From a phage, in assembly GCA_026188615.1 (NCBI GenBank), contig GCA_026188615.1_4525.1: DNA of 64,000 nucleotides; one strand, given 5' to 3'. Of the stretch, positions 3,026 through 61,089 are shown piece after piece (positions within the stretch are counted from its first letter, which is position 1; every line of letters begins with the position of its first letter). Below the pieces are notes generated by a model. It did no database searches and was not told where the DNA came from. It saw only the letters and a program-made list of their open reading frames with translations. The position numbers were made by a program, and so were the translations under genes.

Positions 3026-3215
3026 TCACAAAGATCGCTTTATCACCGTTCGCATCTGTGACTTCATATGTAGTGTCTTCGTAGTGTGGAATATTCCAAA
3101 TTACACCGTCATTAGCTTTTACACTAATATGGCATTGGTGTTTTGAAACAACTTCATAATCTTCAAAACTTGTAAAAACACTAATTTTAGAACCAGTGCA
3201 AATTGCAGTAGTCAT
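3018..3215 (-). CDS. hypothetical protein
   Basis: 65-aa ORF, tight spacing to neighbours. Confidence 0.4.
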   Translation of the reverse strand: MTTAICTGSKISVFTSFEDYEVVSKHQCHISVKANDGVIWNIPHYEDTTYEVTDANGDKAIFVID

Positions 3216-3216
3216 T

Positions 3217-3876
3217 TTAACCTCGATTCATAAATGCATTAAATATTTGGTCATCAACAGAAATTTCTAATTCAACTTCAATTGCTTCAGCCTTTTCTTC
3301 AGGTGGTAATTCATATCCACACACTACAATTTTTTCATCGATATCAAAATATACAGAAGCAATACGATTAATGTTACTTTCAGTTAAGTCTAAATCAACA
3401 TCAACATCTTTTTGACCTACACTTAAAGGATAACTAATACGGGTTATTTTATTATCTTTAACAAAGAGACCACCAACATACTCTGTACTACGTTTGAAGT
3501 TTACACGTTTCCGAATTGAAAGATATGATGCATCTTTACCATGAGCTCGGCTCATAGGACATAATGAATAGCTAGAATAAGAGATGTCAAATCCTACACC
3601 TTCAATATGAGCCAACGTGTCATGATTAAACCAATTATAATCATATGCCAAATCCATTATATTGTAATATGTGAAAGGCACAGGATTAACATCATATGTT
3701 GTACCTTTAAAATCTGCCCAGGCAACGATTTCGTTATCTTTAACAATTACAAAAATTACACCAATATGGTATCCGTTATTATTTTCATTCGGCGTTATAT
3801 TATAACATTGTGCATTAGGAAATTTACCATATTTAAATGGCGCATTTTTGTGCATATAATAAATCATATTATTCAC
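3217..3876 (-). CDS. hypothetical protein (61.2-like position)
   Basis: 219-aa ORF; no motif recognised. Confidence 0.5.
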   Translation of the reverse strand: MNNMIYYMHKNAPFKYGKFPNAQCYNITPNENNNGYHIGVIFVIVKDNEIVAWADFKGTTYDVNPVPFTYYNIMDLAYDYNWFNHDTLAHIEGVGFDISYSSYSLCPMSRAHGKDASYLSIRKRVNFKRSTEYVGGLFVKDNKITRISYPLSVGQKDVDVDLDLTESNINRIASVYFDIDEKIVVCGYELPPEEKAEAIEVELEISVDDQIFNAFMNRG

Positions 3877-57580: not shown

Positions 57581-57886
57581 TTAATTTTTCCAACTTAACA
57601 ACTTGTAGTGTCCTTCATTCATACGTGGTTTATCCCAAGAAATACTAATATATGATTCGCTGTCAATAGAAGTCGCCGGGTTTTTCTCTACCGTAAGACC
57701 TTCACTTTCCAGCCATTCAATAGTATTTGCGCATAAATCGGAAGAACACCTCATCGGGAACCGGCAAGATTTTTCACCTTTAGCTGCAGTGTTATACATC
57801 TTTTCTAAAATACGCTTTTGCACGTTTTTAAAAATAGTTTCAGCAGATTCTTCAGATTTTTTATTCAGTTCAGTGTAAAGACTCAT
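57581..57886 (-). CDS. hypothetical protein
   Basis: 101-aa ORF. Confidence 0.5.
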   Translation of the reverse strand: MSLYTELNKKSEESAETIFKNVQKRILEKMYNTAAKGEKSCRFPMRCSSDLCANTIEWLESEGLTVEKNPATSIDSESYISISWDKPRMNEGHYKLLSWKN

Positions 57887-57914
57887 AATATTTTCCTCAT
57901 GTTTTTATAGGTCT

Positions 57915-57943
57915 ATAGTAACACATCTAGGGAAGAAGTAAAC
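57915..57943 (-). promoter_or_regulatory. early-type promoter
   Basis: GTTTAC-N17-TACTAT just after terminator 57974..58001. Confidence 0.5.
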
Positions 57944-57973
57944 ATCTTTATGAAATATTTTTATGCCCTAGAC

Positions 57974-58001
57974 ACCAAAAAGCCCCAACCTTTCGGAAGG
58001 G
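57974..58001 (-). terminator. rho-independent terminator
   Basis: AGCCCC...GGGGCT then T5; near-copy of terminator at 43376..43404; downstream of RNA region. Confidence 0.65.
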
Positions 58002-58052
58002 GCTATGCCTTGCGGCAACCTTGTCGGGGTTCCACCTGCTAAGGCAAGTGTT

Positions 58053-58144
58053 TGTACGAAACGCCGGGATTTGAACCCGGTTATCAAGTAGTTGACGCTA
58101 CTCAATATTTTTAAAAGGCCATATCTCGACCATATCCGAACGTT
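58053..58144 (-). ncRNA. tRNA-like structured RNA element
   Basis: T-arm CCGGG-TTCAAAT-CCCGG followed by 7-nt strand pairing with CGGAACG 77 nt upstream; no D or anticodon arm could be folded. Confidence 0.3.
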
Positions 58145-58315
58145 CCGTCAAAAACGCTACTCGGCTTACGGCAAAGATATTTCCTCGAATCGATAATTCG
58201 GTGCGCCGTTTCTGCTGTGATGTAAGGGGATATTAACAAATCGTAAAGATTTATTAAGACCAGTCCTTACTCAGGGAACATCAGTCCGACGACTTACCGG
58301 TAGCGACCCGGCTTC

Positions 58316-58711
58316 TTATTTTGGCATATCATCAATTTGCTCTCGACGCCGACGCCATAGATTAATCGCTTCATTAACACATTCGGCGTTTGGTATATGA
58401 CGGCAATAATATAATGATTCGCGTTTCTGGAACCGATGTTGCAATGGGATTTCGTTTAAAAGGTCTTTACGGTCAAAGTATTCAAAACTAGTTAACCCGG
58501 AACGGTTTTTAATGAACTTCCAATGACCGAATTCATTTTGAACATAGATGTAATCGGCATGCTGATACAGCGAATTAATCAATCGATGAGAAATAACTGT
58601 ATCATATTCGTTAAAATAAAACGTTAAATCATGAACTACCAGATAAATATTGCCTTTCATATTTTCCTCACTTAAAGTTGGTGCCTCTAGAAAGATTTGA
58701 ACTCTCACCAT
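58316..58711 (-). CDS. hypothetical protein (start uncertain)
   Basis: 131-aa ORF; likely begins at internal MKGNIYLVVHDL. Confidence 0.45.
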   Translation of the reverse strand: MVRVQIFLEAPTLSEENMKGNIYLVVHDLTFYFNEYDTVISHRLINSLYQHADYIYVQNEFGHWKFIKNRSGLTSFEYFDRKDLLNEIPLQHRFQKRESLYYCRHIPNAECVNEAINLWRRRREQIDDMPK

Positions 58712-58739
58712 TAACCTTAGAATGATTATATGCTATCCA

Positions 58740-59405
58740 TTACACTATAGAGGCAATTAAATTATTTACAATATCTTCTTTATAAACTTCAGCATAATGA
58801 AGTTCATATATTTCCCATCCTAATGATTTTATAATATCATGGCGTTCTTTATAATAAGGGGCCAAAATCTTTTTCTTAGGATTGGAGTAATGTTGGTTTC
58901 CATTAACTTCAATAATAATCTTTTTATCTATTAAAGCAATATCCGTGCAATACGCTCGGTTTTTAACCGGTTGGTATTCTTCAATAAATGAAATTCCATT
59001 TTCTATTAATTTAGATTTCAAAAATTCACAAGGCACAGATTTAAATTTTGTATTTTTCTTCCAAGGATGTTTATCGGGGTTTTCATTCAACCATTTTTTC
59101 CGAGCATTAGATATTTTTATTCTAGCTTCCTCAGAGTGTTCTCTACCTAATGAAGCGGCTGACAATTTTTGTCTAGTCTCTTCCGAAATTACTACAGGAA
59201 CACCAGTCTTTTTAGATACAACATACTGGTTTAAATTACCTGAAGCTATACGTGCTTTATTCATTGCTGCAATGGCTGATTTAGAACTTTCTTTATACAA
59301 TTCCAATTTAGGGTTGGATTTACACCATCTAGTGTGGTTAGCCATCCATCCTTTAGGTTTATTAGAAATATCAAATTCCATATTACAATGTTTACAAATG
59401 CTCAT
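58740..59405 (-). CDS. putative endonuclease (Zn finger, NUMOD3-like helix, C-terminal Vsr/DUF559-like PD-(D/E)xK domain)
   Basis: Track ORF starts on TTG; ATG MSICKHCN...; C-terminal IIEVNGNQHY...ERHDIIKSLGWEIYEL; sits beside the tRNA genes. Confidence 0.5.
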   Translation of the reverse strand: MSICKHCNMEFDISNKPKGWMANHTRWCKSNPKLELYKESSKSAIAAMNKARIASGNLNQYVVSKKTGVPVVISEETRQKLSAASLGREHSEEARIKISNARKKWLNENPDKHPWKKNTKFKSVPCEFLKSKLIENGISFIEEYQPVKNRAYCTDIALIDKKIIIEVNGNQHYSNPKKKILAPYYKERHDIIKSLGWEIYELHYAEVYKEDIVNNLIASIV

Positions 59406-59415
59406 TACCAATTAT

Positions 59416-59434
59416 CTCCTATAAAATATAGGAG
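59416..59434 (-). promoter_or_regulatory. hairpin sequestering the Shine-Dalgarno of the endonuclease gene
   Basis: Perfect 8-bp inverted repeat CTCCTATA/TATAGGAG; the AGGAG RBS lies in the 3' arm, ~10 nt upstream of ATG at 59405. Confidence 0.45.
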
Positions 59435-59479
59435 TATTTATTATTTGGATAGAGCACTTAATTTACTTCGTTTAAATTA

Positions 59480-59551
59480 CTGGCGCACTTGGACTCGAAC
59501 CAAGATAAAGAAGTTAACAGCTCCCCGTAATAACCTTTATACGATGCACCA
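59480..59551 (-). tRNA. tRNA-Asn (anticodon GUU)
   Basis: Cloverleaf folded by hand: U1-A71 7-bp acceptor, D loop with GG, anticodon loop CUGUUAA, T arm CTTGG-TTCGAGT-CCAAG; no encoded CCA. Confidence 0.7.
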
Positions 59552-59557
59552 TTTGTT

Positions 59558-59632
59558 TGGTGACCCTGGCTGGTTTCGATCCAGCTACCTATCAGTTATG
59601 AGCTGACAGCTCTCCCATTGAGCTACAGGGCC
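59558..59632 (-). tRNA. tRNA with CAU anticodon (Met or Ile2-type), CCA encoded
   Basis: Acceptor GGCCCTG/CAGGGTC, D stem GCTC/GAGC, anticodon loop CUCAUAA, T arm GCTGG-ATCGAAA-CCAGC, 3' ACCA. Confidence 0.7.
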
Positions 59633-59694
59633 TAAATAACTTTCTATTATGAAAGGCACTTTAGAGTACCTTTGGTAATAGAGGGTATGAATTA

Positions 59695-59719
59695 ATAATA
59701 ACACATAATTCTTAAAGCA
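59695..59719 (-). promoter_or_regulatory. middle-promoter-like element (TGCTTTA-N12-TATTAT) upstream of tRNA genes
   Basis: MotA box consensus with canonical spacing, ~60 nt upstream of tRNA 5' end. Confidence 0.45.
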
Positions 59720-60227
59720 AATCAATCATTTTAACAGTTGGCAAAACGATTTCTTCTTCAATATAAGCAAATTCGACACGTTCAACTACACGCAAGAAAT
59801 CATAATCATAGTATTCAGAAGCATAGCCAAGAATATCAATAAGACCTTCTGATACCTCATCACCTTTCACAAAGAACAGGTCGAATACACGGGCTTCGTC
59901 TTCTTCAGATTTATAGCCAAGGTCGACTTCAATATCAAAGACCTTTTTAATGAATTCTGGATAAAGCTGGTCTGAGAACAGTCCTTCAACCAAGTATTCA
60001 TAGATTAAAAGCGAGCAATCACTGAATGGTGTATTACCACAGTAACGTTCAGCTTTAGTACTGGAATGACGACTCTTAAATTTCTTCAAGAGATATTTAA
60101 ACTGTTGGAGCTCATGCTCTTCCACACCAAATAATGTTTTGGTTTTATAGTTGTCGCCGTCATTTTCCCAAGTAGTGACATCAATTACGTAACCCTTAGG
60201 AATTGTACTGCCTAAACAAATATTCAT
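59712..60227 (-). CDS. hypothetical protein
   Basis: 171-aa ORF. Confidence 0.55.
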   Translation of the reverse strand: MNICLGSTIPKGYVIDVTTWENDGDNYKTKTLFGVEEHELQQFKYLLKKFKSRHSSTKAERYCGNTPFSDCSLLIYEYLVEGLFSDQLYPEFIKKVFDIEVDLGYKSEEDEARVFDLFFVKGDEVSEGLIDILGYASEYYDYDFLRVVERVEFAYIEEEIVLPTVKMIDLL

Positions 60228-60231
60228 TTAC

Positions 60232-60522
60232 TCACCGTACCATATTAATGTAATTATATTCAATGCAACGTAATTTCAAAGGATTCTTGAAAATATCATA
60301 TTCAAGAGGGCCTTTTTCTGTTTCAATAAAGAAATCAAAGTTAACTGTGTTAAATTTATCGTCTTCACAGAGTAATTTAACTTGCGAAGATGAACGGTCG
60401 ATATAAACCTTTTCAACCTCAAAGTTAGTCAGAATACCGTAGTCATTAACTAGTGCTTTAGCTGCACGTTGGTCGCTTTCATATCCATTCTCGACAGATT
60501 TTACTTTAGCATAAAGAATCAT
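60232..60522 (-). CDS. hypothetical protein
   Basis: 96-aa ORF. Confidence 0.5.
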   Translation of the reverse strand: MILYAKVKSVENGYESDQRAAKALVNDYGILTNFEVEKVYIDRSSSQVKLLCEDDKFNTVNFDFFIETEKGPLEYDIFKNPLKLRCIEYNYINMVR

Positions 60523-60899
60523 GAATGTTCCACCATTTCAAAGGTATGAGCATCAACAATATGATACCAGTCAAAATTTTCTTCTGCGTTTTTATAAATT
60601 TCGCGAAGAGCCTCAACAGTTTTTCCTGTAGCAACAAGGTCGTCAATACCACCAAGAGGATAACAGTCATAACCAGCAAACAGAAGGAAATTAATAGTTT
60701 CTGTAGGTTCTGGATGCAGAACACCGTTATCGTCTACCACTTCAAAGAAAGTGTAAGAAGGAGTACAAGTTTTAATCCAAGCCCATGCTTGAGCTGCTGA
60801 ATCAAATGGTCTGCGTATCAAACGACAATCAGGGTCTTTAGAAGGATTTGCTTCAAAATCAGCATATACATGATATTTCATTTTACTCACCTTTTGCAA
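60519..60899 (-). CDS. hypothetical protein
   Basis: 126-aa ORF. Confidence 0.5.
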   Translation of the reverse strand: MQKVSKMKYHVYADFEANPSKDPDCRLIRRPFDSAAQAWAWIKTCTPSYTFFEVVDDNGVLHPEPTETINFLLFAGYDCYPLGGIDDLVATGKTVEALREIYKNAEENFDWYHIVDAHTFEMVEHS

Positions 60900-61089
60900 T
60901 TTTATCCATAACGATAGCGATTAAACTGATTAGAAATGCTACTACCAATGAGATAGAATTTTCAGTTGTTGTCAGTAGTCCGCAAATGAATCCTACAAAC
61001 ATCGAAAAACTAAAAGCCATTGAAGCAATTACTACAGCAACATTACGAATCAGTTCAGCGCGTTTCATTTTATTTCTCCATTTACTCAT
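60883..61089 (-). CDS. small membrane protein
   Basis: 68-aa ORF, two TM segments. Confidence 0.5.
   Translation of the reverse strand: MSKWRNKMKRAELIRNVAVVIASMAFSFSMFVGFICGLLTTTENSISLVVAFLISLIAIVMDKIAKGE

Follow-up and report, generated by a model that had tools for sequence, protein, structure and literature searches.

The stretch of DNA analyzed here (hereafter the window) comprises 64,000 nucleotides of one strand of a phage contig (GenBank assembly GCA_026188615.1, contig GCA_026188615.1_4525.1). The phage belongs to Mosigvirus (RB69-like), and the region of interest is 96-98% identical to the coliphages WFL6982, AV111 and F2. On the minus strand, an open reading frame (ORF) for a protein of 221 amino acids is flanked by transfer RNA (tRNA) genes (Table 1). 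An original prediction, made from the letters of the DNA alone, had placed an endonuclease-like gene for this protein directly downstream of two tRNA genes. The ORF and the two upstream tRNAs were indeed found, but a third tRNA, tRNA-Arg(UCU), had been overlooked, and the gene lies between tRNA genes, not just behind two of them. The range that had been given for it (58740-59632) does contain the gene, but also takes in tRNA-Asn(GUU) and tRNA(CAU). With considerable confidence, the gene can be regarded as that of a free-standing Vsr-like (I-Bth0305I/'EDxHD'-related) homing endonuclease, situated in a mobile cassette that carries tRNA genes. The cassette consists of a leader (late promoter and a hairpin with the ribosome-binding site, RBS), the ORF and a T4-type tRNA-Arg(UCU), to which this lineage adds a tRNA-Asn.

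The tRNA(CAU), named Met by ARAGORN, is by sequence type a homologue of the T4 tRNA-Ile(CAU) that lies upstream of segB. It forms the left border in common with relatives that do not carry the nuclease gene, and its sequence is the same in the phages moha and ATK47 up to ...GGGTCACCAA. At the other end, the ORF runs 15 nucleotides into the tRNA-Arg gene: its last four codons and the stop (GCC TCT ATA GTG TAA) are part of the tRNA, with the stop codon at tRNA positions 13-15. A TTG at 59411 is available as an alternative start and would give a protein of 223 amino acids. Because every homologue begins with MSICKHC, the ATG is taken as the true start.

Table 1. Features of the tRNA locus, with positions counted in the window.
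Feature	Position	Strand	Basis or remark
tRNA with anticodon CAU	59558..59632	minus	ARAGORN; Rfam, 59.4 bits
tRNA-Asn(GUU), part of the inserted segment	59480..59551	minus	ARAGORN; Rfam, 48.8 bits
Leader, 74 nucleotides, between tRNA-Asn and ORF		minus	
Outer leader stem, 5' arm AAGUGCUC	59452..59459	minus	RNA fold
Late-promoter-like box AATAAATA	59435..59442	minus	sequence reading; one mismatch to TATAAATA
Hairpin CUCCUAUA-UUU-UAUAGGAG	59416..59434	minus	perfect 8-bp inverted repeat
Outer leader stem, 3' arm GAGCAUUU	59396..59403	minus	RNA fold; covers last AUG base and codons 2-3
Nuclease gene, 221 amino acids, ATG start, stop included	58740..59405	minus	
tRNA-Arg(UCU), T4-type allele	58679..58754	minus	ARAGORN; Rfam, 57.6 bits
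Small conserved ORF, phrog_3355	about 58660..58316	minus	E 8e-50; function unknown
Replaced segment, 874 bp	58683..59556	minus	no homology with moha between 59557 and 58682

The gene was detected by tblastn in 34 of 50,697 phage records, and in 12 of the 844 records that have DNA in common with the 2.4-kb region around it. In typical Mosigvirus genomes (moha, ATK47), the tRNA(CAU) is followed after 3-4 nucleotides by a tRNA-Arg(UCU) of quite different sequence. Where these phages have 75 bp (spacer plus resident tRNA-Arg), the window has 874 bp (tRNA-Asn, leader, ORF and T4-type tRNA-Arg). The cassette has replaced the resident tRNA-Arg of an RB69-like phage. The window-type tRNA-Arg allele occurs in exactly the 12 gene-carrying records and in no others among the 50,697. 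The tRNA-Asn is missing from most Mosigvirus, moha and ATK47 included. Together with its 3' flank it is found in 10 of the 12 gene-carrying records (all except PSD2001 and DCP548) and in the deletion derivative G2285. It cannot be a constant companion of the gene, as these two carriers are without it and the same allele is present, free of the gene, in Salmonella phage STP4-a. Two hallmarks of the free-standing homing endonuclease genes of T4-like phages (seg/mob/hef type) were observed, namely sporadic presence (12/844 here and 7/167 in Jiaodavirus) and co-conversion of the flanks with polymorphism of the site (linkage in 12/12 records, a chimeric tRNA and an island of identity, described below). 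The comparison of the tRNA locus in relatives that had been proposed with the original prediction yielded a sporadic gene with alleles replaced at its site, and not a gene present in all relatives at an invariant site; a nuclease fold was also found (see below).

Between the window and both WFL6982 and AV111 there are no differences over 58800-59399, compared with 4-19 (mostly 12-19) differences per 200 bp over 59800-61000, and the cassette is identical across phages whose flanks are 6-10% apart. Such an island of identity is what would be expected after recent horizontal spread. A second Mosigvirus, DCP548, carries a copy of the gene with 79% amino-acid identity. Its left flank is 95% identical to that of the window, while from 59457 rightwards, gene included, the mean identity is 85%. 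Because the synonymous divergence (dS) of the gene is about 2 despite the 95% identical left flank, the two copies appear to have been acquired independently. The tRNA-Arg of DCP548 (L008 2152-2227) is chimeric, with a cassette-type 5' half and a 3' half of the resident Mosigvirus type. It was not called by ARAGORN, and Rfam covers model positions 6-65 only (37.6 bits). As the halves come from different tRNA-Arg types, the acceptor stem cannot pair, and DCP548 seems to have lost a working tRNA-Arg through invasion by the cassette.

Loss was also observed. In G2285 (L013 1582-1660), what remains is the tRNA-Asn and a leader that breaks off halfway through the Shine-Dalgarno sequence, with the promoter box and the hairpin as far as TATAGGA; the deletion corresponds to window 59409..58342 and removes the ORF, the tRNA-Arg and phrog_3355. 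A larger deletion in AV115 (L014 1510-1600) has brought the 5' part of the tRNA-Asn, ending in the T-loop GGTTCGAATCC, up against the rnaC region, where the sequence continues with a tRNA-like T-arm (~58077). The joint is the sequence motif recognized by SegB. The fused tRNA is annotated as tRNA-Asn in the records and is no longer detected by Rfam. AV109 and AV114 probably share the deletion, to judge from matching partial hits. In PTE-Eco05 (L093), one extra A in an A5 run causes a +1 frameshift at window position 59214, and the truncated ORF is annotated; this may reflect decay or a sequencing error.

Homologues that are 50-65% identical are found in the tRNA clusters of other phages, and all phage homologues examined lie in such clusters. 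The order is Leu, gene, Arg, Thr in Jiaodavirus of Klebsiella and Enterobacter, CAU, gene, Arg in the Gaprivervirus PSD2001, Arg, gene in the Providencia Gualtarvirus and Asn, gene, Ser in the Acinetobacter Lazarusvirus. Among 167 Jiaodavirus records, seven carry the gene. In the Jiaodavirus phages Merci and 5N, the same alleles of tRNA-Leu and tRNA-Arg directly adjoin each other (...CACCAAA|GCCCTTATAG...), so that these phages provide exact empty sites; the insert of Shark_ER15 begins right after the tRNA-Leu and ends at tRNA-Arg position -1. An origin of Merci and 5N by precise deletion of the gene through a direct repeat was not supported, since the sole repeat (AATTG) would give another junction. 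The majority of Jiaodavirus have another tRNA-Arg type and the order Arg-Leu-Thr. The tRNA modules of this genus are thus either Arg(RB69-type)-Leu-Thr (Roth01, L011) or Leu-Arg(T4-type)-Thr/Pro (Merci, 5N; L010, L012). From the different tRNA-Leu alleles of the two modules it is concluded that genera exchange whole tRNA modules.

The association with tRNA genes extends to distant relatives on metagenomic contigs. In seven of eight contigs ARAGORN called tRNAs beside the gene, and the eighth (L017, P0016) has a weak tRNA-Arg(UCU) at 3144-3218, detected by Rfam only (35.7 bits), which the ORF overlaps by 26 nucleotides. IMG/VR was scanned as well, and 56 of the 68 loci obtained, being distinct and intact, were counted. 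A tRNA lies within 1.5 kb of the gene in 53 of these and within 100 bp in 40; a tRNA-Arg is present within 100 bp in 26, and in 22 it is tRNA-Arg(UCU). Arg(UCU) accounts for 22 of 54 adjacent tRNAs versus 6 of 164 non-adjacent tRNAs at the same loci (Fisher p = 1.3e-10). The tRNA-Arg is found on either side and on either strand of the gene, as would be expected for a free-standing endonuclease gene beside its target gene. The overlap of exactly 15 nucleotides with the downstream tRNA, with TAA at positions 13-15, recurs at six loci from three divergent lineages: the window, L004, L007, L008, L018 (tRNA-CUA) and L019 (tRNA-Arg(CCU)). Longer overlaps occur in L009 (24 nucleotides) and in the L017 contig mentioned above.

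Because relatives adjoin tRNA-Arg genes in many phages, the gene probably spreads by cutting tRNA loci and thereby reshuffles phage tRNA sets. A broader proposal can be put forward more tentatively. The clade, recognizable by its ENPDKHPW...EVNGNQHY core, might consist of homing endonucleases that are specialized on tRNA genes, above all tRNA-Arg(UCU), and might represent a second solution, independent of SegB. Its members would insert exactly at the tRNA 5' end, use tRNA positions 13-15 as their stop and move tRNA cargo between genera.

The same data bear on a different explanation, in which the gene would be an ordinary accessory nuclease in a hyperplastic region, patchily distributed because general recombination among tRNA genes adds and removes it at random, and not through cleavage of its own. 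The region has indeed been rearranged in many ways for which no nuclease is needed, such as the deletion in AV115 that joins two T-loop sequences; tRNA orders vary in Jiaodavirus, and some relatives contain extra ORFs. However, the same core is found beside tRNA-Arg(UCU), on either side, in very different phages, for which chance fails to account (p = 1e-10). Insertion is precise at tRNA position +1, and the cassette remains identical although its flanks have diverged. Moreover, the nearest structural relative of the protein is a proven homing endonuclease, and a leader with late promoter and hairpin is typical of T4 homing endonuclease genes. Random gain and loss of an accessory gene is therefore considered improbable.

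For the homing endonuclease, expression would be governed by the leader. The original prediction had described a perfect 8-bp inverted repeat over the RBS and had suggested translational control. The arms (59416-59423 and 59427-59434) match in 8 of 8 positions around a loop of 3 nucleotides, and the 3' arm, UAUAGGAG on the messenger RNA, is the Shine-Dalgarno sequence. There are 12 inverted repeats of at least 8 nucleotides within 1.1 kb, so the repeat alone is ordinary. The 101-nucleotide leader region (59380-59480) folds with -22.7 kcal/mol (z = -3.96): the inner stem holds the Shine-Dalgarno sequence, and the two outer arms of Table 1 pair around it. The outer stem is also present in L004, L007, L008 and L009, and the sequence conserved among these cassettes begins at about 59452..59459 with GTGCTCTATCC. 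The stems vary with compensating changes (ACUCCAAAC/GUUUGGAGU in L016, a G-U pair in DCP548), and the Acinetobacter copies have an outer stem of 10 bp in which the AUG is included. In the metagenomic relative L019 (P0028), a perfect inverted repeat of ~27 bp (2430-2500) ends exactly at the ATG of the gene, an occlusion of the start that is far stronger than in the window.

The box AATAAATA directly abuts the 5' arm of the RBS hairpin and is found in every copy of the window lineage. At the same spot, nine homologous cassettes of T4-like phages have the T4 late-promoter box TATAAATA without any mismatch. Seven cassettes were folded: in read-through RNA the probability that the Shine-Dalgarno sequence is unpaired is 0-0.16, and in RNA started 6-7 nucleotides past the box it is 0.39-0.78 in five of the seven. 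The exceptions are the Providencia copy, which stays at 0.04, and the Acinetobacter copy, which reaches 0.24. For the window the values are 0.00 in read-through RNA versus 0.77 in RNA starting after the box. The suggested translational control agrees with this pattern of sequestration and release. The gene is probably expressed late; for the window copy, with one mismatch in its box, this would be expected by analogy. The window contains five exact TATAAATA boxes, all on the minus strand, where 8.2 would be expected, a scarcity and strand bias consistent with a motif that is reserved for late promoters on the coding strand. A search for a sigma-70 promoter for the gene gave nothing above chance (5 found versus 7.4 expected). 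A role of the hairpin as intrinsic terminator was rejected, as it was flagged on the plus (antisense) strand only and is not followed by a T-run on the coding strand.

The box is also the starting point of a second alternative, namely that the window copy is a decaying, immobile homing endonuclease gene, kept passively with a mutated promoter and a 3' end that is locked to a needed tRNA. The mismatch in the promoter box runs through the whole window lineage, one close relative is frameshifted, and precise deletion of the gene is constrained, as the ORF overlaps the sole tRNA-Arg gene. Against this, several phages share an intact ORF of identical sequence, and all family-invariant residues are retained. 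The ratio of nonsynonymous to synonymous substitution rates (dN/dS) is low against PSD2001 and DCP548, and the identity island argues for recent spread. Among seven homologues dN/dS amounts to 0.06-0.23; because it is low, the protein is taken to be under purifying selection. A copy in decay is, in our view, unlikely.

As a functional homing endonuclease, the protein would combine DNA-binding and nuclease parts. The N-terminal Cys/His cluster, the NUMOD3-like helix and the C-terminal Vsr/DUF559-like nuclease motif that had been proposed could all be recognized. A C2HC zinc finger spans residues ~1-30 (C5, C8, H24 and C28) and is modelled by AlphaFold as a beta-hairpin plus helix, with a predicted local distance difference test score (pLDDT) of about 96. 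C2H2 fingers are weakly matched by the family profile (E 0.04-0.13), and Pfam zf-C2H2 is matched by two family members. Behind the finger comes a helical linker that contains NUMOD3-like repeats (~70-108; modelled helices 75-85 and 92-108). Pfam NUMOD3 matches the window protein with E 0.003 and 17.8 bits, under the cut-off of 20.4 bits; 10 of 58 family members match it as well, the best with E 6.6e-6. The nuclease core (~86-221) adopts a Vsr-type (restriction-enzyme-like) fold in the whole-protein model (pLDDT 92), and its nearest structure is a proven homing endonuclease. Finger and NUMOD3-like helices are predicted to bind DNA, and the Vsr-fold domain is predicted to cut it. Profile matches to the core are weak: Pfam DUF559 is just over its cut-off (21.4 bits), PHROGs gave weak matches to 'homing endonuclease' families besides families without assigned function, and a scan of the protein against NCBIfam found no match. 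In a search of the PDB, a profile of the core only matched solely 3r3p (E 0.033) and 3hrl, with IEVNG placed on IEVNG of 3r3p; the single protein and the full-length profile returned zinc-finger noise only.

With a limit of E <= 1e-3 there are 1,407 clusters of homologues, and with E <= 1e-10 there are 627. What unites them is a strongly conserved core of ~130 C-terminal residues, RKKWLxENPDKHPWK...PCE...EEY...SIDIAF...IEVNGNQHY...YYQxRHDLI...GW..E.HY. The N-termini differ, with one to three C2HC/C2H2-like fingers or a helix-turn-helix. A conserved core with varied N-termini is the modular build of phage homing endonucleases. The family-invariant residues are E143, D155, E166, N168, G169, H172 and Y173. 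The metal-binding Asp (D51 of Vsr, D196 of I-Bth0305I) and the E-x-N/D-G strand motif are thus present, as D155, E166, N168 and G169 are invariant in the alignments of 58 and of 32 sequences. H172, a candidate for the general-base His (H69 of Vsr, H213 of I-Bth0305I), is invariant in the 58-sequence alignment and reaches 90% conservation or more among the 32 core sequences. The spacing from D155 to H172 is 17 residues, the same as between D196 and H213 of I-Bth0305I. The candidate active site comprises E143, D155, E166, N168 and H172. Other nuclease families were not recognized: GIY-YIG has no Pfam or PHROG match in the protein, HNH has no Pfam match, and the sole PHROG match labelled HNH (phrog_559) is weak (E 0.006) and lies over the Vsr-like region. 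The label HNH endonuclease that two homologues carry (phi1_146055, phi1_092060) is at odds with the Vsr-like fold.

In the least likely of the alternatives, the protein would instead cleave or bind RNA, using its Vsr fold in a RAP-like manner on tRNA precursors or host tRNA (for example for the processing of the cluster transcript or in counter-defence), and its position in the tRNA cluster would reflect this function. However, the N-terminal modules (C2HC finger, NUMOD3 and helix-turn-helix) are of the DNA-binding kind that characterizes homing endonucleases. Moreover, a factor for tRNA processing would not be confined to a mere 12 of 844 relatives, and allele replacement, chimeric tRNAs or an island of zero divergence would not be expected of it. 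All three rivals are less likely than a mobile homing endonuclease.

Several points do weigh against a homing endonuclease. The strongest Pfam match of the protein is RAP, a domain known from RNA-binding proteins. In the hidden Markov model (HMM) alignment, H172 stands one column ahead of H213, and Y173 comes under H213. The second catalytic Asp (D97 of Vsr, D222 of I-Bth0305I) has no invariant counterpart; a nearly invariant Tyr184/185 is aligned with it, and D190 of the window protein varies in relatives (S, E, T, Y, V, R, N). The catalytic chemistry may differ from that of EDxHD enzymes. Because the His is off by one column and the last Asp is aligned with a Tyr, the protein is called a Vsr-like homing-endonuclease relative, short of proven EDxHD membership. 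The window box is AATAAATA and not TATAAATA, which makes late expression of the window copy uncertain. The right junction of the cassette falls exactly at the CCA end of the tRNA-Arg, where there is no obvious recombination homology, and none of the phages compared emerged as a donor sharing this right flank. Merci and 5N may represent an ancestral condition and not present-day targets. Finally, cleavage and homing are predicted activities throughout the clade.

The following mechanism is proposed for the homing endonuclease. During mixed infection, a phage without the gene would have its tRNA(CAU)/tRNA-Arg locus cut by the enzyme, at the tRNA-Arg gene or close to it. Repair would use the gene-carrying copy as template, and the gene with its linked tRNA-Arg allele (here also the tRNA-Asn) would be co-converted into the recipient. 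The cut would lie at the tRNA-Arg gene or its 5' edge, given the precise insertion at tRNA-Arg position +1 and the bias of the family to tRNA-Arg(UCU). On the long early/middle tRNA transcript, RBS and start would be sequestered in the two-tier stem, while transcripts from the late promoter would begin inside the 5' arm and be translatable. Four elements of this scheme are inferred: that the protein cleaves DNA, where it does so, that transcription is late and that the linked tRNA-Arg allele is immune.

The closest parallel by location is found in T4, where the order is tRNA-Ile(CAU), segB (GIY-YIG, 221 amino acids), 5 nucleotides, tRNA-Arg, rnaD and rnaC. The original prediction had noted that the gene takes the place of segB, and it does occupy this very slot, between a homologue of tRNA-Ile(CAU) and a T4-type tRNA-Arg that has its D-arm in common with T4. 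The target of SegB is a motif in the T-psi-C arm, present in many tRNA genes, and through its action the tRNA region of T4 is preferentially inherited (PMC2330249). More recently, it was shown to amplify tRNA loci against tRNA-cleaving defences, with a general tRNA association and no isotype preference (PMC13096335). The two genes resemble each other in slot, length, type of leader and association with tRNA genes and, as inferred for the window, in preferential inheritance of the tRNA region. However, SegB is a GIY-YIG enzyme and the window protein is Vsr-like; homology was rejected, as blastp gave no match with E < 2, and the resemblance is one of location and regulation only. Whereas segB stops 5 nucleotides before the tRNA, the window ORF enters it, and in contrast to SegB, which is without isotype preference (PMC2330249, PMC13096335), the window family is biased to tRNA-Arg(UCU). 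T4 segB and the cassettes have a leader pattern in common, xATAAATACTCYTA..ATAGGAGAT, with Shine-Dalgarno sequence and start in a stem, as in T4 segB CATAAATACTCTTAGAAATAGGAGAT and PSD2001 TATAAATACTCCTATACTTAATAGGAGAT. This likeness would result either from a swap of ORFs behind one regulatory element or from convergence. One slot with two unrelated endonucleases resembles the replacement of mobC and mobE by SegH and Hef, as cited in PMC2988022 and PMC3239194.

Control by late promoter and hairpin is known for I-TevI (PMC2988022) and was proposed for segB (PMC2330249). As in I-TevI, the predicted late promoter is placed so that late transcripts would miss the 5' arm of the hairpin that sequesters the RBS on read-through transcripts; the window copy differs in its AATAAATA. 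The I-Bth0305I/Hef family has the same bipartite build, in which DNA is bound by an N-terminal region containing NUMOD-type helices and the nuclease, of Vsr fold, is C-terminal, and I-Bth0305I also has the D...IEVNG...H signature with 17 residues from Asp to His (PMC3239194). Vsr-like family members of phages also occur as free-standing genes with hairpins in their 5' leaders (PMC2677866). The similarity to I-Bth0305I in sequence is nevertheless marginal (E 0.033, with the family profile): the window has ExNGNQHY where I-Bth0305I has EVNGVYWH, and an invariant Tyr is aligned with the last EDxHD Asp. The N-terminal NUMOD-type region is of type NUMOD3, with a C2HC finger, whereas I-Bth0305I has NUMOD2 and helix-turn-helix repeats. 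Unlike members of that family, the window gene lies between tRNA genes and not in an intron, an intein or a protein-coding gene. Another restriction-enzyme-fold homing endonuclease that is tied to a tRNA gene is I-Ssp6803I, a PD-(D/E)xK enzyme encoded in a cyanobacterial tRNA-fMet intron and mentioned in PMC2677866.

Vsr-like homing endonucleases (I-Bth0305I, Hef), SegB in T4 tRNA clusters and control by late promoter and hairpin are already known. A non-exhaustive search of the literature yielded no description of a clade with C2HC finger, NUMOD3-like helices and an ExNGNQHY Vsr-like core, nor of a Vsr-like endonuclease associated with tRNA-Arg(UCU). Neither the overlap of ORF and tRNA nor the replacement, chimerization or loss of tRNA genes around such a clade was found described there. 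Phage tRNA clusters are now viewed as counter-defence loci that SegB amplifies (PMC13096335). If the present interpretation is true, tRNA arrays would be a general landing zone for homing endonucleases, which would shape the tRNA content of phages. On the broader and more tentative proposal made above, members of the clade would create, replace and destroy phage tRNA genes and, like SegB, would possibly amplify them against tRNA-targeting defences. In the related genomes, cassette-linked replacement, chimeric inactivation and deletion affect tRNA-Arg and tRNA-Asn. The pairs of filled and empty sites (Shark versus Merci and 5N; window type versus RB69 type) are natural material for mapping the specificity of Vsr-like enzymes. 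Database annotation can also be corrected, as the gene is listed as 'hypothetical' or 'HNH' or is not called. In the records AV111, F2, HY126, PSD2001 and 17-11, it is uncalled despite an intact ORF.

Downstream of the cassette, Mosigvirus has the phrog_3355 ORF between tRNA-Arg and rnaD. The ORF is missing from T4 and from Gaprivervirus PSD2001, where tRNA-Arg leads directly to rnaD. Homologues of T4 rnaD/rnaC (the species 2/species 1 small stable RNAs) lie on the minus strand at 58055-58319 in the window, with 92.9% identity over 264 nucleotides. A scan with Rfam of the leader and the GC-rich stretch 57950-58320 gave the three tRNAs and nothing else; this stretch is the rnaD/rnaC homologue, and 58055-58319 looks unannotated because Rfam is without a family for rnaD/rnaC. 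The ORFs listed at 58055-58319 are probably spurious. AV111 (L092, about 470-780) and HY126 have an extra 0.5-0.7 kb with an annotated ORF, at the equivalent of about 57800-58000, which is missing from the window. On the other side, an imperfect inverted repeat of 18 nucleotides (59643-59682; 83% complementary, 4-nucleotide loop) lies between the upstream gene (59712-60227) and the tRNA(CAU). The repeat is shared by moha and ATK47 and may serve as a signal for processing or termination.

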